DNA of 64,000 nucleotides from Planctomycetota bacterium (GCA_020851795.1 JADZCA010000001.1:3661-67660); one strand, 5' to 3'; shown: positions 9,588-57,426, numbered from the stretch's first letter. Numbers and translations: made by a program. The notes: a model not told the origin generated them from the sequence alone.

Positions 9588-9644
9588 CGCCACGGGCCCC
9601 GCGCCGTGCAACGGGGAGCGCCTCCCGTGCGAATCCACGGTGGA

Positions 9645-12002: not shown

Positions 12003-12005
12003 CCC

Positions 12006-12054
12006 CGCAACTCGGTGCCAGGCACCGCACTGCGGTGCCTGGCACCGAGTTGCG
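12006..12054. repeat. 49-nt perfect palindrome (24-bp arms, 1-nt centre); candidate terminator/attenuator or protein-binding site
   Basis: I checked the base pairing by hand: 12006-12029 pairs perfectly with 12054-12031, with the centre at 12030. Each arm contains the sub-palindrome GGTGCC(A/T)GGCACC. It starts 4 nt after the TAG at 12000-12002 and ends 28 nt before the GTG at 12082. There is no T-tract. Confidence 0.9.
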
Positions 12055-12081
12055 CTATGCTGCGGGGGTCGGGAGGACCCC

Positions 12082-15000: not shown

Positions 15001-15144
15001 GGCCGCTACACCGTGCGGGTGACCGTCCCCGGGGAGGCCGCGACCGAGCAGCCGGCCGAGCTCAAGGCCGGACAGAGCGTGGGCGTGATCTACGGCGTCA
15101 CGCCGCCGGGCACGATGGCCTGCGGTGGGGGCAAGTGCGGGTGA
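12082..15144 (+). CDS. Secreted/membrane-anchored carboxypeptidase-regulatory-like (CarboxypepD_reg) repeat protein
   Basis: The GTG at 12082 is in frame with track ORF 11902..15144, with GGGAGG 6 nt upstream. The signal anchor is VVLAVVALCAVLAAAWW. About 10 repeats fit the pattern G-R-V-V-D-x-x-G-x-P-V-x-G-A-x-V ... DGRF/Y-R-x-x-x-L/V-P-x-G. Confidence 0.8.
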   Translation: MGRRRVVLAVVALCAVLAAAWWGRDLVGLRGADLVEAERDDGRAPPPAERAGPDAVAAAGTLGARPRATTAPPAAEEPAITGRVLDADGRPVADARVLALPDGLRAPFALEEVGGEGFAVADAISGADGRFRVAVRGGAVLATLVAIAADGARGSALDVPAGRDVEVVVVAPGAIEGTVVARDGTPVPGARVRLSGATDLVRVDVEAVADARGAFRVAPVPVSGRESAFATASLVALVEVTAEGFAPLVPSPWPLPGAPGEVVRRTFVLSRGSTLLGRVVHAGTKAPVAGARVVLWSIEGNATQTRGPGGRTVALPRGQRVLAEATSGSDGTFRFEHVPGLGFHAPMSPVNGRLGPLVGNVTAFADGLAPTSASFAAIVEGERQEVALEAWPATTLLGRVVDARGAPAHADVAQQAPEGRGMLYLPASLFPDTPSGQTQTDANGRYRLLVPSAPTPGDPEPAVLVAADPDDTTATATVTLRAGHAVEVPDLVLAAVPAGAHEVAVAVVDERGAPVVGATVSLDGSDARGGHRTDLRGRVAIATDADVGVEARVRVASEGYGAAVARVRVTSPGAPPTPLRLHAGHRLAGRVVDAAGRGVPGVAIVVGDGRVSPEALAADVARVRDGVRRATSERDPSTGFAAAALGETVPPDGPWATDYVDGEGRFSLRNLPPGPYTVIAHRYAQPGPSATGVPSDTLDCTLVAEAWMQPPRLTTVSGTVRDAATGVAPEQLDVELDAWPFPMRQASSDAQRPGLRPGIGGAELELAAPGRFSFTEVGAGPAVLTVRAAGYVPVRRTLWVTAGVPIELAPIELSRGVVVRGTLRVREGDAPARLRVAFTAVGVREGGAIERSASVAPDGRYEVRGLAPGRWRLAVGSVEGQVFAVADGAPCVIPPATPEVVFDATLVPAALLFLGTSDPRFRVAQDGVSDADRALAAGTVVVVLDEHGDVVERCDGVGTSDAQEHLGGLVLPVGRYTVRVTVPGEAATEQPAELKAGQSVGVIYGVTPPGTMACGGGKCG

Positions 15145-15197
15145 ACCGGCGGCCGCGTCGGACGTAGACTCCCCTGCGGTCGCGGAGACGGTGCTCG

Positions 15198-18100
15198 ATG
15201 GCGCGCAAGCTGGTCCTCCTCGTCGTCCTCGCCGCGGTGGCGGCGCTCGTCGCGTGGCAGGCGGGCGTGCTCTCGCCGCGCGGTGAGTCGCTCGGGCTCG
15301 GCGGCGGCGATCCCGACGCGCCCGACGCCGCGGGGGCCGGTGCGGCAGCCTCGGACGGCGCGGGCGCGCCCGGCACGGCCGACGGCGGCACGCTGGCCCG
15401 CAGCACGCGCCCCGTCGCCAAGACCAAGCCCGCCACGGTGGACGGCCCTCGCATCACGGGGATCGTCGTGGACCGCGCGGGGACGCCGCTGCGCGACGCC
15501 CGCGTGCTCTCGATGCCCGACACCCTCGAGCGGACCTTCTCGGCCGACGACGTCGGCAAGGCCGACCTCGCGGTGTCCGACGCCGTCACGGGCGAGGACG
15601 GCCGCTTCGTCGTGGCCGTCGCGGACGCGCCCTACCACGCGCTCGTCGTCGAGGTGGCAGGACGCTCTCCCGCACTCGAGTCGCCGGTGCGCACCGGCGC
15701 CGACGTGCGCATCGTCGTCGAGGACGGCGCCGTGGCACGCGGCGTCGTGATGGACGCCGACGGCACGCCGGTCGCGGGGGCGCGGGTGCGCTGGAACGGG
15801 CTCCTCGACGCCTACCGCGTCGGCGCCGAGACCACGTCCGGGCCCGACGGACGCTACCGCCTCGTCGGCCTCCCCGCGGCCGCCCCGACCGCGGCGCGCG
15901 CCGTGGGGTACGTCCCGTCGTCCGCGTTCGGGGCGTTCCTCGTGGACGCCGAGGGCTTCGCGCCGCTCCTCGTCGCGACGGCGCGCCGCTTCGAGCCCGG
16001 CCAGGACGCCGAGCGCGACTTCGTCCTCTCGCGCGGCGCGACGGTGCACGGGACGGTGGTCGAGGCCGAGACCGAGAAGCCCGTGGCCGACGCGCGCGTC
16101 GTGCTCTGGTCGCTCGAGGGGGCGGGGTACGCGATCTGGCGCGGCGGGAACGGCGGGAAGTCGGTGGCGCCGCCCTGGTCGCCGCGCCTGCTCCAAGAGG
16201 CGCGCACCGGCGCCGACGGGTCGTTCCGCCTCGAGCACGTGCCCGCACAAGGGTTCCACCCCGTGCAGTCCAACGAGTGGGGCGAGAAGGGGCCGGTGGT
16301 GGGGCGCGTCGCGGCGATCGCGACCGGCTACGCGCCCGCGACGGCGCCGGTCGGGGCGGCGAAGGAGGGCGCGACGGTGCCGGTCACCCTCAAGGTGTGG
16401 CGGACGGCGGTCGTGCGCGGGCGCGCGCTCGACGCGCAGGGCCAGCCCGCCAAGGGCGCGTGGGTCAACGTCGCGCGCAGCGACCGCTCCGCCGGCGAAG
16501 GGCTGCCGAAGTCGTTGTTCCCCGACGGCCCGCGCGGGCCGACCGTCCAGGCGGGCGACGACGGCTCGTTCCGGCTCGACGGCCTGGCCGTCGCGGCGCA
16601 GGGCGCCGAGGAGCTCCAGATCGTCGGGCGGCTCGAGGCGTCGTCGCGGCGCGGGTGGACGGAGGCCGGCGACGGCTCGGTCAAGGTGAAGGTCTCGGCC
16701 GGGGCCGACGTCGTCGCGCCCGACCTCGTGCTCAAGCCCGACGAGTCCCGCGGGCCCGCCGTCGAGGTGCGGGTCCGCGTCGTGGACCCGAGCGGGGCGC
16801 CCGTGTGGGGGGCGCAGGTCGGCGTGTCGTGGAATCCCTCGTTCGTCGGCGCCCGCACGGACCGCGACGGCGTCACGACGGTCTCGCTGCTCAGGCACGC
16901 GCGCCGCACGATGCCCGGCGAGATCACCGCGACGGCGTCGGCGCGGGGCTTCGCGTCGGGGGCCGCGACGTTTGCCCCGACCGAGGGCGCAGCGGTGGAG
17001 GTGACGATCACGCTCAAGGCGGCGCACACGCTGTCGGGCCGGGTCGTGCGCACCGACGGGACGGGCGTGCCCGGCGTGCAGGTCGGCGTGGCCGACGGCA
17101 CGCTGCCGGTGGCCACCGTCTTCCCCGAGCCCAAACCCGGCGTGCGAAGCCCGATGGCGCCGGCCCCTGCTCGCCCGGGGACCATCGGCCCGCACTACGG
17201 CAGCGCCACGACCGACGAGAAGGGGGCGTTCGTCGTCGAGGGCCTCCCGGAGGGGCCGTACCACCTGCTCGCCACGACGGCGCCGCGCAACGGGGCCGCG
17301 ACGAGCACGGTGCGCGCGCTCGCGGTGGACGTGCCGACGGACGCGCGCGACGTCGAGCTGTCGTTGTCGATGGCAGCGGCGCCGCCGACGGGACGGCTCG
17401 AGGGCTCGGTCGCGGACGCCGCGACGAAGCGTCCCGTGCGCCAGCTCGTCGTCCAGCTGCGGCGCGGCGACGAGACGGGCGCCACGGCGTGGGCGGGCGC
17501 CGAGGGGCCGTTCTTCGGCCCCGGCGGCGCGACGCAGGGCACGATGCCGTCGCCGGGACGCTTCGAGTTCCCGGCCGCGCCCGAGGGCTCGTGGACGCTC
17601 GTGGCGCAGGCCGAGGGGTACCGACCGGCGTCGGTCGAGGTCGCGGTGCGTGCCGGCGAGACGACGAAGGTCCCTCCGATCCTCCTCGACTTCGGCGTCA
17701 CGGTGCGCGGTCGCGCCCGGCTCCCGAGCGGTTTCGACATGGCCTCCCGCACGCTCGTCTTCACGGAGGCCGACGGCACGGGCGCCGAGATCCGCTCGGT
17801 CTCCGCGCGGCTCGAGGACGACGGTCGCTACGAGGCGACCGGGTTGACGCCCGGCCGCTGGCGGGTCGCGAGCTGGGTGGACTCGTGGTCGGGCAACGAG
17901 CCGCCTCCGCAGCTCGTGCCCGACGCGGGCCTGCTGACCGTGGACGCGACGACCGGCGAGGTGCGCTTCGACCCCACGCTCGTGGCCGCGGGGATGCTCC
18001 AGATCAACTGCAACGACCCGAAGCTGCCGCCGCCGCCTTGGGAGGGCACCGGGGCGACCGACGAGCAGAAGGCCTACGCGGCGGCCTGCGCGATCGCCGT

Positions 18101-18341
18101 CCGCGACGGCGCCGGCGCCGTCGTGGCGGAGCAGCGCGGCGGAATCACGCGCGCCGGGGCGGGGCGCGTGGGGTGGCTGTTGCTCGTGCCGGGTCGGTAC
18201 AGCGTGCACATCGAGCGTCCCGGCGAGGCGCCGCGCGACGAGGCGATCGAGGTGAAGCCGTCGCAGCCGGCCTTCGTCTCGCTCGCCCCGGCCGCGCCGG
18301 CCGCCGGTACGCCCGGCGCGATCATCCCGCCCGGTCGCTGA
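15198..18341 (+). CDS. Carboxypeptidase-regulatory-like repeat protein, tandem paralog of 12082..15144
   Basis: Track ORF with signal anchor MARKLVLLVVLAAVAALVAW and the same repeat pattern. The N-terminal block ITGIVVDRAGTPLRDARVLSMPD aligns to ITGRVLDADGRPVADARVLALPD of the upstream gene. Confidence 0.85.
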   Translation: MARKLVLLVVLAAVAALVAWQAGVLSPRGESLGLGGGDPDAPDAAGAGAAASDGAGAPGTADGGTLARSTRPVAKTKPATVDGPRITGIVVDRAGTPLRDARVLSMPDTLERTFSADDVGKADLAVSDAVTGEDGRFVVAVADAPYHALVVEVAGRSPALESPVRTGADVRIVVEDGAVARGVVMDADGTPVAGARVRWNGLLDAYRVGAETTSGPDGRYRLVGLPAAAPTAARAVGYVPSSAFGAFLVDAEGFAPLLVATARRFEPGQDAERDFVLSRGATVHGTVVEAETEKPVADARVVLWSLEGAGYAIWRGGNGGKSVAPPWSPRLLQEARTGADGSFRLEHVPAQGFHPVQSNEWGEKGPVVGRVAAIATGYAPATAPVGAAKEGATVPVTLKVWRTAVVRGRALDAQGQPAKGAWVNVARSDRSAGEGLPKSLFPDGPRGPTVQAGDDGSFRLDGLAVAAQGAEELQIVGRLEASSRRGWTEAGDGSVKVKVSAGADVVAPDLVLKPDESRGPAVEVRVRVVDPSGAPVWGAQVGVSWNPSFVGARTDRDGVTTVSLLRHARRTMPGEITATASARGFASGAATFAPTEGAAVEVTITLKAAHTLSGRVVRTDGTGVPGVQVGVADGTLPVATVFPEPKPGVRSPMAPAPARPGTIGPHYGSATTDEKGAFVVEGLPEGPYHLLATTAPRNGAATSTVRALAVDVPTDARDVELSLSMAAAPPTGRLEGSVADAATKRPVRQLVVQLRRGDETGATAWAGAEGPFFGPGGATQGTMPSPGRFEFPAAPEGSWTLVAQAEGYRPASVEVAVRAGETTKVPPILLDFGVTVRGRARLPSGFDMASRTLVFTEADGTGAEIRSVSARLEDDGRYEATGLTPGRWRVASWVDSWSGNEPPPQLVPDAGLLTVDATTGEVRFDPTLVAAGMLQINCNDPKLPPPPWEGTGATDEQKAYAAACAIAVRDGAGAVVAEQRGGITRAGAGRVGWLLLVPGRYSVHIERPGEAPRDEAIEVKPSQPAFVSLAPAAPAAGTPGAIIPPGR

Positions 18342-19359
18342 CGACGGCAGGCCGCGTGACGGCCCGCTCCCGAGGGCGCGCGGTGCTGCGCAGCAGCGCC
18401 GCGACGTCGCGCTCGAGGAAGCGCAGGCGGGCGCGGGCGACGTCGCCCGTGCGCCGGGCGCGCTCGGGGTGGCCCCGCAGACGGCGCAGCGGGGCGACGA
18501 CGGGGGCGCGCACGATCTCCCAGAGTGAGCGCGCGACGACGCCGAGCACGAAGAGCCCCGCGAACGCCCCGAAGGCGAGGGGGCCGAGGCGCTTGCGTTG
18601 GAAGCGGACCGCGCCCACGAGCAGCGGGAGGCGCAATCGGCGGTCGAGCGGTCCCGTCGAGGCGCCCCCGACGTGGCGCACCGCCGGCGCGTCGGCGACG
18701 AAGTGCACCTCCGCCCCGGCGCGGCGCGCACGCCAGCACAGGTCCACGTCCTCGAAGTAGAAGGGGTACCCGGGGTCGAACCCGCCGAGCCGCTCGGCGA
18801 GGTCGCGGCGCACCACCATCGCCGCGCCGGAGACCGCCTCGACGGGGCCCGTGCGCGCGCCGCGCCCGACGTCGCGCTGGCGTCGCGTCGCGCGACGGCC
18901 GACGCCGAACCAGCCGAGCGGCGTGTACTGGTGCAGCATCGCGAGCGCCGTCGGGAAGCCCCACGCCGAGCGCTGGGGAAGGCCGTCCTCGCCGACGAGC
19001 GGCGGGGCCGCGACGCCCACCGCGGGTCGCGCGTCGAGGTAGGTGACCACCGCGCCCAGCGAGCCCGGTGCCGCTTCGGTGTCGCTGTTGAGGAACACGA
19101 CGTGGCGCCCTTCGAGCGCACCCATCGCGGCGTTGTTGCCGCGCGCGAAGCCGACGTTCTCGGCGTTCTCGACCACGCGCACGTGGGGCAGGCGAGCCCG
19201 CACCGCCGCGACGGTGCCGTCGTCGCTCGCGTTGTCCACGCAGACGACGCGGGCGCGGTAGGGGGCGCAGGCCGGCGCCGCGGCGGCGAGCGCGCGCAGC
19301 GTGAGGTCGCGCGTGTTCCACGACAGCACGACGACGGTGAGGTCGGGCGGCGCGTCCAC
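18322..19359 (-). CDS. GT2-family glycosyltransferase
   Basis: Track ORF with motifs VVVLSWNTRDLTLRAL, VDNASDDGT, NVGFARGNNAA, FLNSDTE (DxD-type) and FEDVDLCWR. It overlaps the convergent upstream gene by 20 nt. Confidence 0.88.
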   Translation of the reverse strand: MDAPPDLTVVVLSWNTRDLTLRALAAAAPACAPYRARVVCVDNASDDGTVAAVRARLPHVRVVENAENVGFARGNNAAMGALEGRHVVFLNSDTEAAPGSLGAVVTYLDARPAVGVAAPPLVGEDGLPQRSAWGFPTALAMLHQYTPLGWFGVGRRATRRQRDVGRGARTGPVEAVSGAAMVVRRDLAERLGGFDPGYPFYFEDVDLCWRARRAGAEVHFVADAPAVRHVGGASTGPLDRRLRLPLLVGAVRFQRKRLGPLAFGAFAGLFVLGVVARSLWEIVRAPVVAPLRRLRGHPERARRTGDVARARLRFLERDVAALLRSTARPRERAVTRPAVVSDRAG

Positions 19360-19512
19360 GCCGCGAGCCTACCCTCCCGCCGCGCCGTCCCCGCGTGCGG
19401 CGACGGCGCCGGGTAGCATCGCGGCCCGCCGCGGCCGCCGCGCGGGTCGGGAGCGCCGGACGGGCCGACGTCCCCGACCGCGTCGCCCCGAGGCGGTCGA
19501 GAGCGCCCCCGC

Positions 19513-21897
19513 GTGCCCCGCGCCTTCCCGGTGACGTCGTCGCGCGCCGCGGGATTCGTCGCGCTCGTCGCCCTGCTCGGGTTGCTCGGCGTCGGGGCCA
19601 CGGCCGAGCGCGCCTGGTTCGCGGCACCGCTCCCGCTCGAGGCGCCCGACCCGGCGCCGGCTCGGCGCGGGCCGTGGCCCGCGCTCCTCCTCGTCGTCGT
19701 GGACGGCCTGCGGGAGGCGGCGACCCCGACGATGAGGACGTGGCAGGCGCTCGCGTCCGAGGGGGCGAGCGGCGTCGCCCGCACCGGCGAGCCGACGATG
19801 TCGGCGCCGTGCGTGCGCGCCATCGTCACGGGCCGTCGCCCGGACCTCTACACGTCGTTTCGCAACTTCGCCCCGGTGCCGGTGCGGGGGTCGGTGCTCG
19901 ACGCGCTCGTCGCGCGCGGCGCGAGCCTCGCGCACGCCGGCGACCGGCTGCTCCCCAACCTCCTCCCCGACGCCTACCGCGACGCCGACGTGTTCGTGCC
20001 GCCGCGCACGCGCTACACCGAGCCCGGCGAGCTCGACGACGACGCGTGGCCCTTCGCGCTCGAGCAGGCGGGCGACGCCGAGGTGGACGTGCTCACCGTG
20101 CACCTCGTCACCGCCGACCTCACCGCGCATCGCTTCGGCGCCGACGGGCCGGCCTACGCCGCCGCCGTCGCCGCCGTGGACCGCCGCCTCGACGAGCTCG
20201 TGCTGCTCTTCCGCCGCACGCGGCCCGGCGCCTACGTGCTCGTGGCGGCCGACCACGGGCTCTCGCCCCGCGGCACGCACGGCGGGGGCGAGCCCGAGGC
20301 GCGCCGTGCGCCCTTCGTGCTCGTCGGCCCCCGCGTGCCGAAGCGGCGCGCGGTCGAGATCCCGCAGGAGGCGCTCGCGACGACGCTCGCCGCCGTGTTC
20401 CGCGTGCCCACGCCGCCGCTCGCCGAGGAGCCGCCCGCGCTCGGCCTCGTCCGCCTCGACCGCGAGGACCGTCGTGACGCGCTGCTCGGGTTCCTCGACG
20501 CCCGCGCCGCCGCCCTCGCCGCCGCGGGGCGCGACCTCGAGGCCCGGGGCGTCGCCGAGCGCAAGGCCGCCGCGCTCGCGCGGGCCACGCCGTCCGACGT
20601 GGACGCGGCGCTGCTGGCCGCCGCGATGACGTCCGCCGCGACCGCCCCGGGCCCCGCGCCCGCGGCCGTGGCCGTGCTCGCGCTCCTCGCGCTCGTCGTC
20701 GCGGTGCTCGTCGCGCGCGGCGGGGCGCGGGCGGCCGTCGTCGCGGGCGGAGGCCTCGCCGCGCTCGCCGCCGTCGCCGCGGCGGTCGCCGCCGCGCACC
20801 ACGCGCGGCTGTCCGCGCGCGAGGTCGCGCCGCTCGCGACGCGCGCGCTCGAGGCCGCCGCCGCCGTCGCGGGGGTCGCGGCGCTGGCGGTCGCCCTGCG
20901 CGGTCGTCGCCGCGACGGCGCGCCGCCCGCGGGCCTCGTCGGGGGCGACGCCGCGCCCGTCGGCGTGGTCCTCGTGCTGATCGCGGGGGCGGCGGTGGCG
21001 CTCGTGCGCTCGTGCCGCCTCGCGCTCGACGACGCGCTGCACGCGCCGTGGCTCTCGACCGCGGCGGCGGGCGTCGCGACGGCCGTCGCGGCGATGCGCG
21101 CCCGCGGGGCGTCGCGCGCCGTGCGGGTCGCCGCGCCGCTCGTCGTCACGGCGGTGCTCGTCGCCGCCCGCGTCGTCGAGGCGGCGGGCGGCGAGGACGT
21201 GCTCGCCCGGACGCAGGGCGTCGGCTGCGGGCTCGCCACGGGCGTCGCGCTCGTCGTGCTCGTCGCCGTGGCCCGCCGCGACGCCGCCACCGTGGGGGCC
21301 GTGGCGTGGGGCCCGGCGGCGGCCGTCGGCGTCTTCACGGCCCTTGACGGCGGCGTCGGCGCGCACGGCGCGGCGTTCGCGCTGGTCGCGGCGGCCGCGG
21401 TCCTCGCGTCGCGCCTGCCTGCGCGGCGCGGGGGGGCGGGCCTCGTCGTGCTCGTGCTCCTCGCGCGCGTCGCCGTCTTCCACGCGCTCGGCGGGGCCGA
21501 GTCGTTGCGGCGCCTCGACCCCGACGGGGCGTTCGTGCCCGGCGCGGCGGGCGTGTCGGGCCTGCGGTCGGTGCTCGCAGGGCTCGCGCCGTGGGTGCTG
21601 CGCGAGGCGTGCACCGTGGCGCTGCTCGTCGCGGCCGCTGCGGCGGCGCTGCGACGTGGCCGCGCGGCCGGCGGGAGCGGCGCGGTGGTCACGGGCCTCT
21701 CGCTCGCGACGGTGGCGGGCGGCGCCGCCCTCGCCGTGGTCGCGTCCGCGTGGGCGCGCTGGGCCTGGTGGATGGCGGTGGCGCATCCGGTGTTCCTCCT
21801 GGCGCTGGTGGACGCGAGCGCCCTCGTCGTCGTCGCGCTCCTCGCCGCGGCGTGGCGCGGGCGCGGGGCCGCGGCGGCGGTCGAGACGGCGCCGTAG
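19513..21897 (+). CDS. Alkaline-phosphatase-superfamily phosphotransferase with N-terminal catalytic domain and long C-terminal polytopic membrane domain (PigO/PigG/Gpi13-like architecture)
   Basis: Track ORF. Catalytic blocks: LLLVVVDGLRE (metal Asp), GEPTMSAPCVRAIVTGRRPD (nucleophile Thr), HLVTADLTAHRFG, VLVAADHGLSPRGTHGGGE. These are followed by ~450 aa of Ala/Val/Leu-rich helices. Confidence 0.8.
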   Translation: MPRAFPVTSSRAAGFVALVALLGLLGVGATAERAWFAAPLPLEAPDPAPARRGPWPALLLVVVDGLREAATPTMRTWQALASEGASGVARTGEPTMSAPCVRAIVTGRRPDLYTSFRNFAPVPVRGSVLDALVARGASLAHAGDRLLPNLLPDAYRDADVFVPPRTRYTEPGELDDDAWPFALEQAGDAEVDVLTVHLVTADLTAHRFGADGPAYAAAVAAVDRRLDELVLLFRRTRPGAYVLVAADHGLSPRGTHGGGEPEARRAPFVLVGPRVPKRRAVEIPQEALATTLAAVFRVPTPPLAEEPPALGLVRLDREDRRDALLGFLDARAAALAAAGRDLEARGVAERKAAALARATPSDVDAALLAAAMTSAATAPGPAPAAVAVLALLALVVAVLVARGGARAAVVAGGGLAALAAVAAAVAAAHHARLSAREVAPLATRALEAAAAVAGVAALAVALRGRRRDGAPPAGLVGGDAAPVGVVLVLIAGAAVALVRSCRLALDDALHAPWLSTAAAGVATAVAAMRARGASRAVRVAAPLVVTAVLVAARVVEAAGGEDVLARTQGVGCGLATGVALVVLVAVARRDAATVGAVAWGPAAAVGVFTALDGGVGAHGAAFALVAAAAVLASRLPARRGGAGLVVLVLLARVAVFHALGGAESLRRLDPDGAFVPGAAGVSGLRSVLAGLAPWVLREACTVALLVAAAAAALRRGRAAGGSGAVVTGLSLATVAGGAALAVVASAWARWAWWMAVAHPVFLLALVDASALVVVALLAAAWRGRGAAAAVETAP

Positions 21898-21900
21898 CCC

Positions 21901-21953
21901 GCCGAACGAACGTCAGGCCCCGACCTCGTCGGCTCGTGAACACGGCGGGCCCG
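21901..21953 (-). repeat. Copy of the 52-nt intergenic element (family 2), reverse orientation, partly degenerate
   Basis: The reverse complement of 21917-21950 reads GCCCGCCGTGTTCACGAGCCGACGAGGTCGGGGC. This matches the core of the copies at 34541, 50652 and 50887. Confidence 0.7.
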
Positions 21954-22048
21954 AGCACGCCCGGCCCCGGGTAGCATCGAGGGGCTTGGCACCGCCCGCG
22001 GCCCCCGACCAAGACGACGCGCCGCCGCGCCACCCTCGGCTGCCGGGC

Positions 22049-22714
22049 GTGATCGGTGTGCTCGCCTGCGCCGCCTGGCTCGTCGGCTACTTCCTGCCGT
22101 GGATCACCTTCACGCCCGCGCAGCGGGAGACCGTCCGCGAGGCGTTCGCGCCGCGCATCGACGCCCTCGAGGCGACCTGGCCCGAGCACGCCGCGCGCTA
22201 CCGGGTGCTGCTCGCGGAGGCGACGGGGAAGGGGGCCCTGACCGGGCTCGACCTCCACCTGTACGCCCGCGCGGCGCACGGCCTCAACCTCGACCTCCAA
22301 GGGGCCCCGCCGCCCGACCGCGCCGCGGAGCGGCCGTGGGTCGTCCAGCGCATGTTCCGCGGGGTCGCCGTGCTCCTCGCGTTCCTCCCGCTCGCCTCGA
22401 CGCTGCTCCTGCTCGTGCTCGTGGCCCGCCGCGTGCGCACCGGCCCGTTGCTCCTCGCCACGCTCGTCGTCGTCGGGTGCCTCGGCGGGACGCTCGGCAT
22501 CGTCTGGACGCGCGTCGCCGAGGCGCTGTCCGCCGACGTGCTGCGGGGCACCGGCCTCGCGCTCGTGCTCGCGTCGTCGCTCGCGCAGGCGTGCACGGGG
22601 CTGTTCTCCGTGACCCGTCGCACGTGGTGGCGCGTGTACGGCCTCGCGCTGCTCGGGCTCGCCCTCGTCGCGACCGTGACGTGGGCCGTCGTGCTGCGGG
22701 GGTGGACGCCGTGA
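22049..22714 (+). CDS. Small polytopic membrane protein (unknown function)
   Basis: The GTG at 22049 is in frame with track ORF 21344..22714. GC3 is very high and there are 4-5 hydrophobic helices (VIGVLACAAWLVGYFLPW, VAVLLAFLPLASTLLLLVLV and others). Its stop overlaps the GTG at 22711 of the next gene. The start is uncertain. Confidence 0.6.
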   Translation: MIGVLACAAWLVGYFLPWITFTPAQRETVREAFAPRIDALEATWPEHAARYRVLLAEATGKGALTGLDLHLYARAAHGLNLDLQGAPPPDRAAERPWVVQRMFRGVAVLLAFLPLASTLLLLVLVARRVRTGPLLLATLVVVGCLGGTLGIVWTRVAEALSADVLRGTGLALVLASSLAQACTGLFSVTRRTWWRVYGLALLGLALVATVTWAVVLRGWTP

Positions 22715-22722
22715 CGGACGCG

Positions 22723-25440
22723 ATGCCGCGCGGCCGCGCGCTCGCGGCCCTCCTGCTCTCGCTCGCCGGCCTCGTCGTGGTCGGGCGCCTCGCGGTGGAC
22801 GCCTGGCTCCTGCGGCCCGTGCCGACGCGCGTCCGCGTCGTGCAGCGGGCCCCGAGCGGCGTCCCGCGGCCGTTCCTCCTCGGGATCGTGGACGGCCTGC
22901 GCGCGGAGGCGGTCGAGGACGACCTCGCCGACCCGGCGATGCCGTTCTGGCGGTCGATGCAGGCGCGCGGCGCGTGGGGGATCGGCGTCACCGGCGAGCC
23001 GACGATGACCGCGGCGTGCGTGCGCACGATCGTGACCGGCCGCAACCCCGACCTCGTGGCGGCGTTCCGCAACTTCGACGCGGCGCCCACCGAGGGGTCG
23101 GTGCACGAGTTCCTGGCCGCGCGCGGGCTGCGGCTCGCCCACGCGGGCGACGCGTCGGCGTTCCAGCTGGTGCGCCGCCACGTCCGCCCGGAGGACGCGC
23201 TCGCCTTCCCCGACGTCGGGCCCCGCGACCAAGGCGAGACGGACGACCGCTGCTACCCGTTCGCGCTCGAGAAGGCGCGCGACCCGGGCGTCTCGGTGCT
23301 CACGTTCCACGTCGTGCGCCCCGACCACGCGGGGCACCGCTACGGCGCCACGGGCGCGGAGTACCGGGCCGCGTGCCGGGCCGCCGACGCGCAGATGCGC
23401 GGCGTCTACGAGGCGTTCGTCGCGACCCGGCCCGACGCGCTCGTGCTGATCACCGCCGACCACGGCGTGACGCCGCGCGGCACCCACGGCGGCGGCGAGC
23501 CGGGCGCGCGCCGGGCGCCGTTCGTGCTGGTCGGCCCGCGCGTCGCGCGCCGCGGGCCCGCCGAGGTGCCGCAGGCGGCGCTCGCGCCCACGCTCGCGGC
23601 GCTGCTCGACCTCCCGATGCCCCCGCTCGCCGAGTCGCCCCCCGCGCTCGAGCTCACGACGCTCTCGCCGACGGAGCGGATGGACGCGCTCGACGCGTTC
23701 CTGCAGGCGCGGCTCGCCACGGCCGCGAGCATGGGCGACGCGGAGGTGGCCGCGGCCCTCGACGCGCGCCGACGCCTCGTCTTCTCCGAGGGGCCCAACG
23801 CGGCGGTCGGGCGCCTCGCCGAGCTGTACCGCGAGCTCGAGGAACGGGCACTGGGCCGCTCGGGGCGCGGGCCCGCGGTGCTCGCGGTGCTGCTCGCCGC
23901 GCTGTGGCTCGCCGCGCTCGTCGCCGAGCCCGGGGCGGGGCGCGCTCGGTCGTGGGCGTTCGCCTGCGGCGTGCTGGCGCTGTGGCTCGCCACCGCGTCC
24001 ACGGGCGGGGCGGGCGCGCGCTTCGCCTCCGAGCCCGCGGTGGGCGTGGCGGCGGTCGCGCTCGCGGCGGTGGCGTTCGCGCGGCCGGTCGTGCCGGTGC
24101 TGGGCACGCGCACGCTGTGCGTCGCGGGCCTGCTCGCCGTCCCGGCGCTGGGCGGCGCGGGACTGCTGCTCCAGAACGCGTTCGACGCGCCCGGCGGCGC
24201 CGGCCCCGCGGCGACGCGCACCGCCGTCGTCGCGGCGCTGCTCGCCGTCGCCGCGCTGGCGCTGCTCTTCCGGCGCGACGCGCGCCGCCGCCTGGCGGCA
24301 CCGCTCGCGGTGCGGCCGGGCCTGCTCGTCGCGCTCGGCGGCGGGCTGCTCGGATTCGGGCTGTCGCTGCGGCTCTTCGTCGACCCGTTCGTCCACACGC
24401 CGATCCTCTTCGCCGCCGCCGCCGGCGTCGGGTTGCTGGTCGCGCTGCTCCCGTCCCGCGTGCGGGCCGCGGCGCCCGGGGCCGTCGCGACGCTGCTCGC
24501 GGTCGCCGCGCTGCTGCTGGTGGGCGGGCGGGTCGCCGAGGGGCTCTCGCCCGACTGGGTCCTCGGGCCGGCGGGCGAGTCGCGGTGGTTCCTGCTCGCC
24601 GCGGCCGGCGCGCTCGCGCCCGTCGTCGTCGCCGCGGCGCGCGCCGCGCGCGGCGGGGGCCGCGACGCGGTGGCCGTCGGGGCGGCGGCCCTCGTGCTCG
24701 TCGCCGCCGTGGTCTACCGGGCGTCGATGCCCGGTCCCGCGGCCGCGTGGCACGCGGCGCGGGCGGGCGGGGTGCTGCTGCTGGCCGCCTCGCCGTTCGT
24801 CGCCGGGGCCGACGCGCGGCTCGCGGTCCGGTTGCTCGCCTGCGCCGCGCTCGGTGCGATCTTCCACGAGCGCAGCGACGCGCAGGTGCTCGGCGTCGCG
24901 CTCACCGTCGCCGCGGGCCTCGCGCTGTCGCGCGTGCCGGTCCCCTCGTCGCGCACCGGGCTCGCGGCGCTCGCGGTGCTGCTGCTCGCGGTGCGGATCG
25001 CCGTCTTCCACGCGCTCGGCTTCTCCGAGTCGTTCTCGACGATCGACGTCGGCGCCGGCGTCGTCCCGGGCGCGCGCGGCGACGGCGCGACCGCGGGCGC
25101 CGACGGCTGGACGCCCGCGATGGTCGAGACCGCGCTGCACCTCGCCGTGAAGTTCGCGCTGGTGTGGGTGGTGCTGCTCGCGGGGCTCGCGCGGGCGTTC
25201 GAGCGGGCGGGGCGCCCGCACGCGCTGCGCACGGTCGTGTTCGACCTCGCCGTCGCGTTCGCCGCGCGTGGCGCGCTGCTGGCGATCGGGATGACGGTGT
25301 GGTGGCGGTCGTCGTGGTGGGTCGCCACCGCCTACCCCGTGTTCACGCTGGGGGCCGCCGACGTGGTGCTCGTGCTCGCCGCGGCGGCGGTTTCGGGCGC
25401 GTTCCGCCGCGACCGCGCGCCGGCCCTCCTGCCTGCCTGA
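22723..25440 (+). CDS. Second PigO/PigG/Gpi13-like phosphotransferase paralog (N-terminal AlkP-type domain + C-terminal polytopic domain)
   Basis: It is in frame with track ORF 22099..25440. The start is ATG 22723, or GTG 22711 overlapping the upstream TGA. Blocks: FLLGIVDGLRAE, GEPTMTAACVRTIVTGRNPD, HVVRPDHAGHRYG, LITADHGVTPRGTHGGGE. A ~550-aa multi-helix region follows. Confidence 0.8.
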   Translation: MPRGRALAALLLSLAGLVVVGRLAVDAWLLRPVPTRVRVVQRAPSGVPRPFLLGIVDGLRAEAVEDDLADPAMPFWRSMQARGAWGIGVTGEPTMTAACVRTIVTGRNPDLVAAFRNFDAAPTEGSVHEFLAARGLRLAHAGDASAFQLVRRHVRPEDALAFPDVGPRDQGETDDRCYPFALEKARDPGVSVLTFHVVRPDHAGHRYGATGAEYRAACRAADAQMRGVYEAFVATRPDALVLITADHGVTPRGTHGGGEPGARRAPFVLVGPRVARRGPAEVPQAALAPTLAALLDLPMPPLAESPPALELTTLSPTERMDALDAFLQARLATAASMGDAEVAAALDARRRLVFSEGPNAAVGRLAELYRELEERALGRSGRGPAVLAVLLAALWLAALVAEPGAGRARSWAFACGVLALWLATASTGGAGARFASEPAVGVAAVALAAVAFARPVVPVLGTRTLCVAGLLAVPALGGAGLLLQNAFDAPGGAGPAATRTAVVAALLAVAALALLFRRDARRRLAAPLAVRPGLLVALGGGLLGFGLSLRLFVDPFVHTPILFAAAAGVGLLVALLPSRVRAAAPGAVATLLAVAALLLVGGRVAEGLSPDWVLGPAGESRWFLLAAAGALAPVVVAAARAARGGGRDAVAVGAAALVLVAAVVYRASMPGPAAAWHAARAGGVLLLAASPFVAGADARLAVRLLACAALGAIFHERSDAQVLGVALTVAAGLALSRVPVPSSRTGLAALAVLLLAVRIAVFHALGFSESFSTIDVGAGVVPGARGDGATAGADGWTPAMVETALHLAVKFALVWVVLLAGLARAFERAGRPHALRTVVFDLAVAFAARGALLAIGMTVWWRSSWWVATAYPVFTLGAADVVLVLAAAAVSGAFRRDRAPALLPA

Positions 25441-25531
25441 CGGGCCGCGAAGGAAGCCCCGGCGCGGCCTGCGCCGCATCCTCGGGGCGTTCGGCCGCGT
25501 GGCGTCGACGCGGCCGCGCGCGTCGCTCGCC

Positions 25532-26329
25532 TCAGCCGCCCATGCCCGGCGCGGGGGCGTCGCCGCCCTCCATCGCCGGCTCGGCCATCCCGGGTTCGTC
25601 CATCCCCGGCTCGCCCATGCCCGGCTCGTCCATCCCGGGCTCGCTCGGGGCCGAGGGGGCCGTCGGCGACGACGACCCGGCCTTGGCCTCGAGGTCGGGG
25701 TAGCGCTCGGCGCGACGGGCGCACTCTTCTGCCGGGATGCGCTTGCTCCACGCCACCGCCACGCGCTCGCCCTCGCGCTGGGCGGGGAAGCGCTTGGCGA
25801 TCCCGCGCACGGCGACGTCGTGGCTGAACCACGTCTGGATGCGCGTCTTGAGCCCGTCGGGCTTGCTCGGGTCGGTCGGGCCCTCGATGTGGCGCTTGGT
25901 GGTCCGCACCGCGTGCGTCGGGGGCGGCCCGCCGAGGTAGAGGAGCTCGTCCTTGTCCTTGCTCTTGTCGTGCGTCCAGCCCGGCGGGATCGTCAGGCCC
26001 TCCTGCACGTCCCACCACCGCGTCGCGGTGTTGTCCACGCCGAAGTCCTTCGTGCCCGTCTTGTCCGTCTTGACGGTCTCGACCAGCACGCGCTTGGCCG
26101 TGCGCGCGAGCACGCGCTCCTCGAACCACAGCACCCACCCGTCGTCGGTGCCGGGCTCGCGGACCTTGTAGAGGCAGGTCTCGCCGACCTCGGCGTCGAA
26201 GAGGGGGTTGTCGAACTTCGGCAGCGGCGTCGTCGGCGTCGGCGGCGGCTCGCCGGGGCCGTCCTGCGCGCGGACGAGGGCCGGCAGCGCGAGCGCGGCC
26301 GCGAACAGGGCGACGAGGGTGCGACGCAT
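25532..26329 (-). CDS. Secreted protein of unknown function with Met-rich pentapeptide-repeat C-terminal tail
   Basis: Track ORF with GGAGG 8 nt upstream of the ATG. The signal peptide is MRRTLVALFAAALALPALVRA. Composition is normal (K/D/E/W-rich). The tail is EPGMDEPGMGEPGMDEPGMAEPAME. The core WVLWFEERVLARTAKRVLVE resembles WVTWTVRA...VEATRVLVAV of the upstream lipoprotein. Confidence 0.75.
   Translation of the reverse strand: MRRTLVALFAAALALPALVRAQDGPGEPPPTPTTPLPKFDNPLFDAEVGETCLYKVREPGTDDGWVLWFEERVLARTAKRVLVETVKTDKTGTKDFGVDNTATRWWDVQEGLTIPPGWTHDKSKDKDELLYLGGPPPTHAVRTTKRHIEGPTDPSKPDGLKTRIQTWFSHDVAVRGIAKRFPAQREGERVAVAWSKRIPAEECARRAERYPDLEAKAGSSSPTAPSAPSEPGMDEPGMGEPGMDEPGMAEPAMEGGDAPAPGMGG
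25571..25645. repeat. Five tandem 15-nt units encoding (E/D)-E-P-G-M repeats
   Basis: The five units are CATCGCCGGCTCGGC, CATCCCGGGTTCGTC, CATCCCCGGCTCGCC, CATGCCCGGCTCGTC and CATCCCGGGCTCGCT, read directly from the sequence. Confidence 0.9.
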
Positions 26330-26375
26330 CGGGGAGCCTCCGGGACCCCCCGATCGTACGGGCGCGGCGGCGGGG

Positions 26376-27035
26376 CTACGAACCGCGCCCGAAGGCCGTC
26401 ACCACCTGCTCGACGCCGCCCGGGCCCCGGCTGCGCGCCACGCCGCCGAGCGGCACGCCCTCGTGGAACGACACGGTCGTGTCGCCCCGCACGACGTCGC
26501 GGGGGCGCAGCGTCGTCGTGCCGACGACCACCGCCGCGCCCTCCGCCGCCGCCTCGAGCCCCGTCGGCGCGACCGCGCGCGCCATCCACACGTCCTGCGC
26601 CGACGAGCCGACCGACCGACCCGCGCCGTCGGTGGACACCGACGCGACCGCGACGAGCACGCGCGTCGCCTCCACGGCCTTCGCCCGCCACGTCACCGTC
26701 GTCGCGCCCTCGACGCCGGCGGCGCGCACCGTCCACGTCACCCAGTCGCCCGCGCGCGGCGACAGCGCGGCCGACGCGGCGAGCGCGGTCGGCGGCGGCG
26801 GCGGCACCGCGGGGGCCGGCGCCGGCGTCGCGGGCGGCGGGGGCGGCACCGTCGTCGGGAGCGGGGGGGCGGCGGGGGCCGAGGGCGAGGTCGGCGTCGC
26901 CCCGGGCCCCGCGCCGGGCGCGAGGACCGGGCCGTCGTCGCGGCCACGCTTGCCCTCGTCGCCGCACGCGGCGAGCGCGAGGGCGGCGGCGAGCACGGGG
27001 AGGGCGGCGAGCGGGCGGCGGCGGGGCGGGCGCAT
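26376..27035 (-). CDS. Putative lipoprotein (unknown function)
   Basis: Track ORF with the lipobox LALAAC after a positively charged N-terminus. A Pro-rich linker is followed by a ~110-aa beta-rich domain. Confidence 0.65.
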   Translation of the reverse strand: MRPPRRRPLAALPVLAAALALAACGDEGKRGRDDGPVLAPGAGPGATPTSPSAPAAPPLPTTVPPPPPATPAPAPAVPPPPPTALAASAALSPRAGDWVTWTVRAAGVEGATTVTWRAKAVEATRVLVAVASVSTDGAGRSVGSSAQDVWMARAVAPTGLEAAAEGAAVVVGTTTLRPRDVVRGDTTVSFHEGVPLGGVARSRGPGGVEQVVTAFGRGS

Positions 27036-27126
27036 GGGGACACCGTACCGGAGGGCCGGGGGCGGGGAAGCGCCGGCGCGCCGGCTGCCCGTTGCGCGGG
27101 GCCGTCCGCCCCCGGATCATGCGCGC

Positions 27127-27651
27127 GTGCGCCGCATCATCGCCGTCATCGGAGCCGGCACCTGCACGCGCCGCGAGTTCAACGCGGCGCACGAGGTGGG
27201 CCGGTTGCTCGCCGAGCGGGGCTTCGCCGTGGCGTGCGGCGGGCTCTACGGCGTCATGGAGGCCGCGTGCATGGGCGCGCGCGAGGCGGGGGGCCTGACG
27301 ATCGGCTTCCTGCCCGGGACGGCCCGCGAGGACGCCAACCCGTACGTGGACCTCGCGATCCCGACCGGTCTGCGCGACGCGCGAAACTACGTCGTCGCCA
27401 CCTGCGGCGAGGCGGCGATCGCGGTGGGGGGCAAGCTCGGCACGCTGTCGGAGATCGCGCTCGCGCTCAAGCGCGGGATCCCCGTCGTCGGGCTGTGGAC
27501 GTGGAAGCTCGACCCCGACCGCCTCTTCGAGACGCGGGTCCCGGCCGCCGGCACGCCGGCCGAGGCCGTCGACCTCGCGGTGCAGCTGGCCGACGAGCGC
27601 GAGAAGGCGCGTGCGGCCGGCGTCGAGACGGGCGGGGAGGGCGAGGCGTGA
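27127..27651 (+). CDS. TIGR00725/LOG-like (SLOG superfamily) Rossmann-fold protein
   Basis: The GTG at 27127 is in frame with track ORF 26479..27651. Motifs: IAVIGAG, VACGGLYGVMEAACMGA, VGGKLGTLSEIALAL (a PGGxGTxxE-like LOG motif). Confidence 0.8.
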   Translation: MRRIIAVIGAGTCTRREFNAAHEVGRLLAERGFAVACGGLYGVMEAACMGAREAGGLTIGFLPGTAREDANPYVDLAIPTGLRDARNYVVATCGEAAIAVGGKLGTLSEIALALKRGIPVVGLWTWKLDPDRLFETRVPAAGTPAEAVDLAVQLADEREKARAAGVETGGEGEA

Positions 27652-29132
27652 GGGCGGTCGGCCTGCGGGGGATCCTCCTCCTCGCGTGCGCCGTCGTGCT
27701 CGCTCGGCCCGCGCCCGCCGCCCCGTCCGCCGACGCCGTGGCCGCGGCGCGCGCCGTCGCACAGAAGGCGCGCGCCAAGGACGCCGACGACCTGCGGCGG
27801 CTGGCGCGCTGGGGCGACGAGGTCGGCGTCCCGCGCACGGCCGACGCGGACTGGGAGCGCGCGTGGGCGCTCGACCCCGACGACGACGCGACGCGCAAGC
27901 GCCTGCACGTGCTCAAGCGGGGGGCGGAGTGCGTGCGCGACGAGGCCTCGTGGGCGCTCGTGCGCACCGCCAAGGACCCCAAGCCCGAGCGGCGCGCCGA
28001 GTACGCGGCGCGGCGCCTCGCCGAGGTCGTGCGGCCGTCGGTCGAGCGCCACCGCGCGGCGGCGGCGGCGCTCTACGCCGCCGGGCTCCCCGACGAAGGC
28101 GTCGCCGAGCTCGCACACGTGCTCGCGCTCGACCCCGCCGACCCTTGGGCGCGTCTCGCGCTGGGCGACGTGCTCGACCCCGGCGCCGGCTGGGTGCCCG
28201 CCGACCTCGCGGCGCGCTGGAACGCCGACGAACACGCGGGCGCCGTGGTGCGGCGCCTCGGCGCCGCGGGCGTCCGCGCCGAGCGCGTGCCGGGCGAGGG
28301 GCCGCGCTCGGCCGCGGTGGGAAAGCCGCTCGCGGTGTGGCGGCTGCGCGAGTGGGTGCTCGAGACCGACCACGACGAGGAGACCGCGGCCGCGACGCTG
28401 GAGGCGGTGGACCTCGCCGCGCGCTGGTTCCGCGCGCGCTTCGGCGTCGCGCCCGCGGCGCCGGTGCTGCCGGGCGAGGGCCGGCTCGTGCTCCTCTCCT
28501 CCGAGGAACTCTACGCCCGCGCGGTGGACGGGGAGACGGGCCTGTCGCCGGCGGTGCGCCGCTTCGCCAAGGGGCTCTCGGCCATCCCGGTGCCGGCGGA
28601 GCCCGACCGCGGGCCGTGGGTCGTGCTGCTCGAGCGGCCGAGCCTCGAGTTCGCCGCGGACGCGTGCGTGCACTACGCGATGCACCTGCTCTTCCAGGCG
28701 CGCTACCACGTGACCTCCGACGAGGGGTGGCTCTACGAGGGGCTCGCGGCCTACGCGACGATCCGACTCCTCTCGACGCAGGCGTCGTGGTGCGTGCGTC
28801 TGGAGGAGACGTCGGCGGCGACGGCCGAGCGCGCGCCCCACGCCGAGGCGTGGGCCGAGCAGACGTGGACGACGGTGGGGCGCGGGCGCGACGAGCCGCT
28901 CGTGCGCCTCGTCGGGGCCTCGCTCAACGAGCTCGACGGGCCCATGCTCGTCAAGGCGTGGTCGTTCCTGCGCTTCCTGCTCGAGGAGCACGCCGAGGAG
29001 GGCGAGGCGTTCCTCGCCGCCAAGCGCCTCGGGCTGAAGACCCCGCAGGCGCTGCTCGCCGCGACCGGGCTGCGGCTCGAGGACGCCGACGCCGCGTGGC
29101 GTGCGTGGGTGGGCGCGACGCTGGGGGAGTGA
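27648..29132 (+). CDS. Secreted protein with Peptidase_MA-like domain in which HExxH reads HYAMH
   Basis: The GTG at 27648 overlaps the upstream TGA (GTGA) and is in frame with track ORF 26208..29132. The signal peptide is VRAVGLRGILLLACAVVLARPAPA. VHYAMH-x17-E sits within GWLYEGLAAYA, which resembles the WLNESFATY block of pepN in this same window. Confidence 0.7.
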   Translation: MRAVGLRGILLLACAVVLARPAPAAPSADAVAAARAVAQKARAKDADDLRRLARWGDEVGVPRTADADWERAWALDPDDDATRKRLHVLKRGAECVRDEASWALVRTAKDPKPERRAEYAARRLAEVVRPSVERHRAAAAALYAAGLPDEGVAELAHVLALDPADPWARLALGDVLDPGAGWVPADLAARWNADEHAGAVVRRLGAAGVRAERVPGEGPRSAAVGKPLAVWRLREWVLETDHDEETAAATLEAVDLAARWFRARFGVAPAAPVLPGEGRLVLLSSEELYARAVDGETGLSPAVRRFAKGLSAIPVPAEPDRGPWVVLLERPSLEFAADACVHYAMHLLFQARYHVTSDEGWLYEGLAAYATIRLLSTQASWCVRLEETSAATAERAPHAEAWAEQTWTTVGRGRDEPLVRLVGASLNELDGPMLVKAWSFLRFLLEEHAEEGEAFLAAKRLGLKTPQALLAATGLRLEDADAAWRAWVGATLGE

Positions 29133-31980: not shown

Positions 31981-32129
31981 CGTCGCCTCCGAGTCGTCCA
32001 CGGTACCCGACTGGCGGTGGGTCCCGGGGAGGGGGCGCACCGGCACGAAATCTCCTCATCGGCGCGGACGAGGCCTCGGGGTGAATTCGGACCGAAGCAC
32101 TCCGATTTCGCCGGGTCGCCGACGTCGCG

Positions 32130-37662: not shown

Positions 37663-37763
37663 CGACGAACCCTCCAGCCAAACGCGCGAGGGTATCCCCC
37701 GGTCGGGGGCCGTGCGCGCGGCGTCCGACCACCCCTCCCCCGGCCCCCGGAGTCGGTGCGCGC

Positions 37764-37900
37764 GAACGCTGAGCGCGGGGTCTGAGCGCGGGGTCGGACC
37801 CCGTGGTCGGTGAGCGTGAGCTCCGACCCCGCAGTCGGTGAGCGCGAGCTCCGACCCCACGGTCGGTGAGCGCGGGGTCGGAGCACGCGCTCACCGTTCC
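37764..37900 (+). repeat. 28-nt hairpin-unit array A (three phased units + partial units + inverted cap)
   Basis: The units at 37784-37811, 37812-37839 and 37840-37867 are each exactly 28 nt (GAGCGnGAGCTCCGACCCCrCrGTCGGT). The cap GAGCGCGGGGTCGGAGCACGCGCTCACCGTTCC contains the 11-bp stem CGGTGAGCGCG/CGCGCTCACCG. Confidence 0.9.
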
Positions 37901-54918: not shown

Positions 54919-55055
54919 CGCCCCGGGAGGGGGCGGCGCCGCGAGGGCTGCCCGGGGGGCGGTCAAGCCGGCGGGGTCGGTCGGGCGCACCGGGGGGAGG
55001 CGCAGGAACCCGGGCACCGCGGCCGGTGTCCAATGCCGGCGTTCGGAGGACCGCC

Positions 55056-56610: not shown

Positions 56611-56644
56611 GACCGGGGGACGGCGGCGGTAGAACGGGGGCCCC

Positions 56645-57382: not shown

Positions 57383-57426
57383 GATCCCGCGGGCCCGCCG
57401 CCCTCCACGCGGCCCCGGAGGTCCTC

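Follow-up and report, generated by a model that had tools for sequence, protein, structure and literature searches.

What do two large membrane proteins, encoded in tandem by a Planctomycetota bacterium and laid out like the ethanolamine-phosphate transferases of the eukaryotic glycosylphosphatidylinositol (GPI) pathway, do for their host? The question is raised by a 64-kb stretch of DNA (GCA_020851795.1 JADZCA010000001.1:3661-67660; hereafter the window, with positions counted from its first letter). An original prediction, made from the sequence alone, had taken these proteins, referred to below as paralogs A and B, for eukaryote-type phosphotransferases which, together with a small membrane protein encoded between them and a divergently transcribed GT2 glycosyltransferase, would form a dedicated module for head-group modification. 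After further computational analysis we lean, on balance, towards A and B being periplasmic (inner-membrane) phospho-headgroup transferases of the PIG-N/O/G type that act on an envelope acceptor. The case for this reading lies in the catalytic domain, the domain order and the linkage of paralog B to its small neighbour, and the membrane domain is where it is most open to challenge.

The locus and its gene calls

The G+C content of the window is about 78%, which leaves long open frames across all six frames; genes were therefore called from a frame plot of G+C at third codon positions (GC3), together with homologue support. GC3 is 96-100% in the proposed frames and the plot switches cleanly where the proposed genes begin and end. 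By these two lines of evidence, the predicted gene set is indeed in place: the GT2 gene (18322-19359, minus strand, 345 aa, GC3 of 0.94-0.95), paralog A (19513-21897, plus strand, 794 aa, GC3 of 0.97), the small gene (21986-22714, plus strand), and paralog B (22711-25440, plus strand). The small gene uses a reading frame different from those of A and B, and its TGA stop (22712-22714) and a GTG at 22711 in the frame of paralog B overlap as GTGA, which had been predicted as well. From this GTG, paralog B has 909 aa; the ATG at 22723, previously given as its start, is an alternative that would yield 905 aa, and a near-identical database protein of 909 aa (P0008) has a start corresponding to the GTG. 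The start of the small gene is probably TTG 21986, giving 243 aa, rather than GTG 22049, giving 221 aa, because homologues of the small protein bear an N-terminal extension. Paralogs A and B are 38% identical overall. Since homologues with 33-65% identity exist in many metagenome-assembled genomes (MAGs), the locus is not a chance pattern. Scans of positions 18000-27800 found neither sigma-70 promoters nor intrinsic terminators.

A PIGO-like catalytic domain

The Phosphodiest family (PF01663) is called by Pfam in both paralogs, while no Pfam match to the sulfatase-type domain PF00884 was obtained in either; a search of NCBIfam contributed nothing specific. The sequence blocks on which the original prediction relied are present in the translations, namely the hhhDGLR block (VVVDGLRE in A, GIVDGLRAE in B), the nucleophile block (GEPTMSAPCVRAIVTGRRPD / GEPTMTAACVRTIVTGRNPD), the H-x4-D-x3-H-R-(F/Y)-G block (HLVTADLTAHRFG / HVVRPDHAGHRYG), and the DHG block (AADHGLSPRGTHGGGE / TADHGVTPRGTHGGGE). 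One detail has to be corrected: the nucleophile is not a Thr directly after the Pro, as alignment to PIGO and to the Xanthomonas nucleotide pyrophosphatase (NPP; Thr90) puts the nucleophile column at Ser97 in A and Thr96 in B. Residues D64, S97 (T96 in B), N118, D202, H206, D247, H248, and H256 of paralog A are invariant or nearly so among 17 family members, and they align with the motifs of PIGO and PIGN and with the ligands of NPP. According to the sequence alignment, the two-metal site, i.e., the metal ligands and the Ser/Thr nucleophile, is complete in both paralogs. The position of the third His ligand separates the enzymes further: it lies about 100 residues after the DHG in the NPP structure, whereas in the bacterial family it follows the DHG His by 8 residues, the same DHG-x7-H spacing as in PIGO and PIGN. 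Sequence alignment of the bacterial family with NPP stops at the DHG.

The branch of the alkaline-phosphatase superfamily to which these domains belong was addressed with a profile of the bacterial family (A1) and a profile of mammalian PIGO (A3). The eukaryotic comparison set consisted of database sequences named by their sources GPI ethanolamine phosphate transferase 3 (PIGO) and 1 (PIGN), and the nominal database size of local profile searches was set equal to that of the solved-structure search. The family profile matched mammalian PIGO at 75-83 bits over a single continuous stretch of about 250 residues, and PIGN at 53-58 bits. Among solved structures, the best was the Xanthomonas NPP at 45.5 bits, in an alignment split into two short pieces of about 60-90 residues each, with ENPP7 at 37 bits; no EptA, MCR, LtaS, or sulfatase chain was found at E<=1 in this search. 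In the reverse direction, the PIGO profile scored 49.3 bits against paralog B, 40.8 bits against paralog A, and up to 103 bits against other prokaryotic relatives. PIGN, although PIGO's own paralog, reached 27-30 bits and thus fell below both window proteins, while the best solved chain, ENPP7, reached 21.6 bits. Alignment of the family profile to PIGO with hhalign (probability 98.95, E of 9.7e-18, 27% identity) brought a series of blocks into register, namely PT-x-[ST]...TG..P, NF, D-x3-H, DHG-x7-HGG, and PQ..L.PTLA.LLGLP.P.

Because the reciprocal profile scores and hhalign both favour PIGO, the catalytic domains of A and B are assigned, at the level of sequence, to the PIG-N/O/G type, nearest to PIGO, and not to the NPP or EptA type. 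The earlier PigO-like reading thus holds for this domain: the best profile matches are PIGO and PIGN, and not soluble NPPs or EptA-type enzymes. Other searches were less discriminating. Searched singly against solved structures, the sequences of A and B yielded marginal ENPP7 and ENPP6 matches only, which are uninformative alone. When a full structural model of paralog A was compared to the PDB with Foldseek, the matches (YejM, NPP, sulfatases, and MCR-1, at E-values of about 1e-7, or 4.5e-6 for MCR-1) were generic for the superfamily, and no PDB chain covered both domains.

Domain order and membrane topology

From a 17-sequence alignment, AlphaFold2 gave a confident model of paralog A (pLDDT of 83, pTM of 0.82). 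It comprises one N-terminal helix (the signal anchor), an alpha/beta domain at residues 58-310 that coincides with the catalytic domain delimited from sequence (about residues 55-310), three linker helices and, after residue 380, another 13 long helices, which correspond to the predicted transmembrane (TM) helices. Hydropathy agrees with a C-terminal polytopic domain in both paralogs; B follows the same plan as A, with about 100 extra residues, forming extra helices, in its membrane domain. Both methods therefore bear out the order signal anchor, catalytic domain, polytopic domain that had been proposed, and TM prediction describes the C-terminal region as a helical membrane protein, with a 14-TM topology in A.

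The orientation of the protein is given by the charges of its loops, with 10 Lys/Arg versus 4 Asp/Glu on the predicted cytoplasmic side of paralog A and 5 versus 9 on the periplasmic side, an asymmetry by which the catalytic domain, like the conserved membrane motifs, faces the periplasm. These motifs, R502-x3-D506-x3-H510, F-H657-A-L-G-x2-E663-S-x4-D669, and W752-W753, lie at the periplasmic face in the predicted topology of A; D767 is a further conserved residue of the membrane domain.

A small membrane protein linked to paralog B

The protein encoded between A and B is a membrane protein, as predicted, with five hydrophobic helices by hydropathy and a loop of about 80 aa after the first of them. 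No Pfam or NCBIfam family matched it. Its homologues, which can be followed down to 28-30% identity, share the motifs YFLPW and aG.FGV....W.RVY. The small gene stands directly upstream of a B-type gene in 10 loci (L001, L004, L006, L008, L009, L010, L016, L023, L026, and L027), and the small protein and the B-type enzyme are the conserved core of the module. As it is translationally coupled to B and co-inherited with it, the small protein is probably a stoichiometric subunit of B. In eukaryotes, PIG-F stabilises both PIGO and PIGG; by analogy, the small protein is probably used by paralog A too.

Distribution and phylogeny

The family extends well beyond the window. A word-indexed search returned 16 relatives only; an exhaustive profile search returned 4025 proteins at E<=1e-3, of which 117 at E<=1e-30. 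About 20 of these matches are close cluster representatives; others form a second tier, made up of proteins of 810-950 aa with similarity across both domains. Orthologues of paralog B, 40-63% identical, are present in at least 12 Planctomycetota loci. Matches in genomes come from Planctomycetota MAGs and, at greater distance, from a Proteobacteria MAG, a Myxococcales MAG, and Poseidoniales archaea; among these distant matches, the plan of a catalytic domain followed by a polytopic domain is kept in the Proteobacteria protein and in most Poseidoniales proteins. The names given by the sources are limited to "alkaline phosphatase family protein" (in Planctomycetia, Polyangia, and Chloroflexia) or "hypothetical". 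The label "eukaryote-type" is overstated: the family is broad in prokaryotes, with Polyangia, Chloroflexia, and Poseidoniales all represented among the 4025 matches. The archaeal members from Poseidoniales / Marine Group II (L015, L017, L018, L019, and L022) are low-GC proteins of 820-925 aa with a signal anchor, PF01663, and 9-17 hydrophobic segments.

Gene order was compared across these loci. The succession of a sigma-factor fusion gene, GT2 (minus strand), A, the small gene, B, a gene for a secreted 265-aa protein (minus strand) and, further on, a SLOG gene recurs in L001 and L026 and, in part, in L027. These three loci share wider synteny with the window, which in L026 also takes in MFS and MgtC genes, and conservation of gene order among such close relatives is for this reason weak functional evidence. 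In more distant loci, whose B proteins are 40-50% identical, GT2 and paralog A are absent and the small gene is still directly upstream of the B-type gene. The flanking genes in L004, L005, and L007-L012 encode UvrA-like, SLOG, PD-(D/E)XK nuclease, and CarboxypepD_reg-repeat proteins. The idea that the four genes are co-conserved as a set is accordingly not borne out: GT2 and A accompany the pair in the close relatives L001, L026, and L027 only, while the small gene and B stay together in all 10 loci listed above. In addition, the loci of two second-tier homologues (L028/L029 and L030) have no gene context in common. L030 carries an APH-family kinase gene (6905-7951; the family includes choline and ethanolamine kinases) immediately upstream of the second-tier homologue P0035 and two more sulfatase-type membrane proteins downstream of it (12267-16500).

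In a crude neighbour-joining tree, built with no outgroup and no support values, A-type and B-type proteins form sister clades inside the planctomycete group. This branching makes paralog A, as far as the sequences tell, a lineage-specific duplicate, the B-type being the ancestral and widely conserved one. Eukaryotic PIGO and PIGN fall among the prokaryotic branches of the same tree; mammalian PIGO is nearest to Poseidoniales archaeal proteins and PIGN to bacterial forms of about 560-600 aa, such as a Chloroflexia protein.

Proposed function and alternatives

If A and B are transferases, their mode of action could be as follows. Each enzyme would be anchored by a single helix with its N-terminus in the cytoplasm and would expose its two-metal, alkaline-phosphatase-type domain to the periplasm. 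There, the catalytic domain would be seated on a membrane domain of 13 or more helices, with the conserved polar motifs at the periplasmic face, and this membrane domain, by analogy with PIGN, PIGO, and PIGG, would present a phospholipid. Its nucleophile, S97 in paralog A and T96 in B, would allow the enzyme to take a phospho-alcohol from this lipid, most plausibly phosphoethanolamine, which is a default guess drawn from the known enzymes, and to pass it to a hydroxyl of an envelope acceptor, which could be of glycolipid, polysaccharide, or surface-glycoprotein nature. The small protein would act as a stabilising subunit, functionally like PIG-F, and paralog A probably provides specificity for a second acceptor or position.

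Several results weigh against this proposal. The same active site also serves hydrolases within the superfamily, e.g., ENPP6 and ENPP7, and no gene resembling the GPI pathway (PIG-A/L/M/V/B-like or transamidase-like) was found among the window genes scanned. The eukaryotic profiles were mammal-only (effective number of sequences of about 1.2-1.5), which limits their sensitivity, and the comparison set was without PIGG/Gpi7. As for the membrane domain, Pfam PigN (PF04987) and PIGO_PIGG (PF19316) matched neither A nor B, nor 54 second-tier relatives, nor six low-GC archaeal/proteobacterial relatives, the PIGO_PIGG test being low-powered because real PIGO sequences rarely carry the PF19316 annotation. 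When C-terminal membrane segments from three bacterial sets were aligned to PIGN and PIGO with hhalign, the E-values (0.03-0.9) were in the range of reversed-sequence controls. When the membrane domain was modelled by itself (pLDDT of 76), the model had no counterpart in the PDB (best E of 0.31, TM-score <0.2); the PDB copy searched appears to hold no GPI ethanolamine-phosphate transferase, since no solved structure matches both domains or the membrane domain. The small protein, for its part, has no Pfam match to PIG-F (PF06699), and its hhalign alignment to an unverified human PIG-F sequence gave an E of 0.1 over 14 columns. The predicted PIG-N/O/G likeness stands for the catalytic domain and for the domain order; homology of the membrane domain is not demonstrable by these comparisons.

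The top hhalign alignments of the membrane segments fall mostly on or near one motif, F-x3-G-x3-[STA]-x3-[ILFVM]-D. Exactly one instance of it is present in each of A (residue 656), B (762), and real PIGN (798 of 931), as well as in most relatives, always about 133-143 residues from the C-terminus, and the PIGN instance FFGTGNIASINSFD matches FHALGFSESFSTID / FHALGGAESLRRLD in the window proteins. The pattern was written with the PIGN motif already known, so that it serves as a lead rather than as a test. Homology to the eukaryotic enzymes over the full length may be considered plausible.

Several alternatives can be set against the transferase proposal. A and B might be membrane-anchored phosphodiesterases or phospholipase-C/D-like hydrolases facing the periplasm, comparable to ENPP6 and ENPP7, and would then split headgroups off membrane or exogenous phospholipids for phosphate scavenging or lipid remodelling, with no transfer step; PF01663 includes many hydrolases, by sequence NPP, ENPP7, and ENPP6 are the closest relatives of solved structure, and no acceptor-synthesis pathway is consistently linked to the genes, GT2 being found in close relatives only. 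We nevertheless regard hydrolysis as rather unlikely, given that the scores of the catalytic domain against the transferases PIGO and PIGN clearly exceed those against any NPP, that the compact DHG-x7-H spacing is of the transferase type, and that a 13-helix membrane domain with invariant polar residues at its periplasmic face, together with a dedicated partner, is typical of lipid-linked transferases rather than of hydrolases used in scavenging. Much harder to credit is a catalytically inactive sensor or scaffold of the kind of YejM/PbgA/LapC, which regulates lipopolysaccharide synthesis without transferase activity. Periplasmic domains of YejM/PbgA are the top Foldseek matches of the full model, but these matches reflect the general fold, with a TM-score to the target of about 0.55 and 16% identity, level with NPP, sulfatases, and MCR-1; moreover, neither the paralogs nor the family at large have lost the metal ligands or the nucleophile, and the domain order of YejM is the opposite one. 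Barely more probable than such a sensor is a literal prokaryotic counterpart of PIGO/PIGG and PIG-F, in which the small protein would be an obligate subunit shared by A and B and the phosphoethanolamine that they install would anchor surface proteins, amounting to a GPI-like system in Planctomycetota. The secreted CarboxypepD_reg-repeat proteins that recur beside the module could be candidates for such anchoring.

The remaining alternative gives the glycosyltransferase a leading part: GT2 would build a polysaccharide or glycolipid glycan, two positions of which would be decorated by A and B. It draws on the 153-bp intergenic region from which GT2 and paralog A are divergently transcribed, with its copy of a repeated 13-mer, and on the GT2/A/small/B order of L001, L026, and L027, the only loci in which GT2 adjoins the A gene. 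Yet no GT2 gene adjoins the small gene and B in L004, L005, and L007-L012, and the relatives that keep GT2 also keep wider synteny, so that adjacency may reflect shared ancestry only. The protein itself is generic: it matches Glyco_tranf_2_3 (PF13641; 77.9 bits for a cut-off of 27, E of 1.5e-21) and Glycos_transf_2 (PF00535; 62.7 bits for a cut-off of 23.3, E of 5e-17) and has a single C-terminal hydrophobic segment (residues 257-283), with no match among solved structures and only sub-threshold generic matches in NCBIfam. A glycan-decoration module dependent on GT2 is on these grounds doubtful, a little more so than hydrolysis, and GT2, which had been given the status of dedicated module member and co-occurs in close relatives only, is a putative member at most. 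The periplasmic phospho-headgroup transferase proposal thus remains the one towards which we lean.

Neighbouring genes and sequence elements

The 13-mer CCGGGTAGCATCG has two exact copies in the 64 kb, both located 5' of module genes on the plus strand: one in the GT2/paralog A intergenic region (19409-19421) and the other just 5' of the small gene (21967-21979). The sequence GGTAGCAT is also found 5' of A-like genes in L027 (9376) and L003 (2893). The 13-mer contains TAGCAT, which fits the TANNNT pattern of -10 elements; a role as a shared operator, or as a shared promoter element of the -10 type, is possible.

Downstream of paralog B and convergent with it, a gene (25532-26329, minus strand) encodes the secreted 265-aa protein, which has an N-terminal signal-like segment and no Pfam or NCBIfam match. 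It is a neighbour that the closer relatives have kept, with homologues immediately following the B gene in L001, L016, L023, and L026; its membership of the module is uncertain. Two further conserved module-flanking genes (26376-27035, minus strand, and 27777-29132, plus strand) likewise have no Pfam family or significant NCBIfam match. The gene at 27127-27651 (plus strand) encodes a TIGR00725 / SLOG cluster-4 (LOG-like) protein (Pfam LDcluster4, E of 1.2e-39; TIGR00725, 127 bits, above cut-off). In five distant loci (L004, L007, L009, L011, and L012), no more than 0-90 nt separate the end of the B gene from a SLOG gene that follows it on the same strand; in the window, two minus-strand genes separate the SLOG gene from B. 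The gene at 29152-32046 (minus strand) encodes a di-haem oxidoreductase (DHOR / cytochrome c); it is absent from the otherwise syntenic L026 and looks like a local insertion.

On the other side of the module, an extracytoplasmic function (ECF)-type sigma factor is fused to a C-terminal extension of about 600 residues with a weak match to squalene-hopene-cyclase-type repeats (9606-12002, plus strand). Counterparts of this fusion exist in L001 (6375-8798), where it adjoins GT2, and in L026 (896-3376); CarboxypepD_reg genes are inserted between the fusion gene and GT2 in the window and in L026. Large secreted CarboxypepD_reg-repeat proteins are encoded at 11902-15144, 15198-18341, and 34711-37890 of the window, and such genes recur beside the module in L003, L008, L011, L012, L026, and L027. 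In one second-tier homologue (P0037, 1416 aa), a CarboxypepD_reg domain is fused after the membrane domain. These repeat proteins were considered as a clue to the substrate and then downgraded, because with three such genes in the 64-kb window their adjacency may be background. Farther away, a bacterial serpin gene (54903-56297, plus strand; Pfam Serpin, E of 2e-107) stands directly upstream of two prolyl-oligopeptidase (S9) genes (56548-59634 and 59631-61808, both plus strand).

Comparison with known systems

A review places PIG-N/Mcd4 in the alkaline phosphatase superfamily. The window proteins resemble PIGO/Gpi13 and PIGG/Gpi7 in having a signal anchor, a non-cytoplasmic PF01663 domain, and a long polytopic domain, and PIGO/Gpi13 in particular in the continuous alignment of their catalytic domain. 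The occurrence of two paralogous enzymes with one small (about 220-240 aa) multi-TM protein recalls PIGO/PIGG and PIG-F, a likeness of arrangement only, since homology of the membrane domain is not demonstrable and the small protein has no detectable PIG-F similarity. The compartments also differ, the lumen of the endoplasmic reticulum for the eukaryotic enzymes and the periplasm here, where no GPI pathway is encoded nearby. PIGN/Mcd4 has the same architecture, a detectable match to the family profile, and the membrane motif at the same distance from the C-terminus; PF04987, however, was found neither in the window proteins nor in 60 relatives, and the catalytic domain is nearer to that of PIGO.

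Among bacterial enzymes, EptA/LptA/MCR-1, EptB/C, BcsG, OpgB, and LtaS belong to the same superfamily and share a periplasmic catalytic domain and the presumed chemistry, in which a phospho-alcohol goes from a membrane phospholipid via a Thr/Ser nucleophile to an envelope acceptor. In these enzymes, however, the TM helices come first (about five N-terminal ones in EptA/MCR-1) and are followed by a PF00884 domain, an order that is reversed in the window proteins. The NPPs (Xanthomonas NPP and ENPP1-7) have PF01663, an equivalent bimetal site, and a Thr nucleophile, but they are soluble or single-pass hydrolases, while paralog A carries a 13-helix membrane domain, and the bacterial family aligns to them in two short stretches only, at 45.5 bits or less.

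A literature search for bacterial PIGN/O/G-like enzymes found no paper, which is not proof of absence; together with the uninformative names of the source proteins, this agrees with the earlier statement that there is no characterised bacterial counterpart. Neither the chemistry nor the fold is new, and eukaryotes offer a precedent for the architecture. The novelty lies in its bacterial, periplasmic form, which comes with a tandem duplicate and with a small partner, conserved but unrelated, and which belongs to a broad and uncharacterised prokaryotic family.

Significance

As the function is inferred, the immediate impact of these observations is modest. They hint that the cell envelope of planctomycetes carries a modification so far unrecognised and, should the proposed activity be correct, they would add to EptA/MCR/LtaS a second class of envelope phospho-headgroup transferases, with an inverted architecture and a dedicated small partner. 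The membrane domains of the GPI ethanolamine-phosphate transferases are poorly understood, and the compact prokaryotic relatives, some of which score about 100 bits against the PIGO profile, could be tractable models for their structure and mechanism. The family also bears on the origin of the eukaryotic enzymes, on which the planctomycete system might shed light if GPI-like anchoring proved true.

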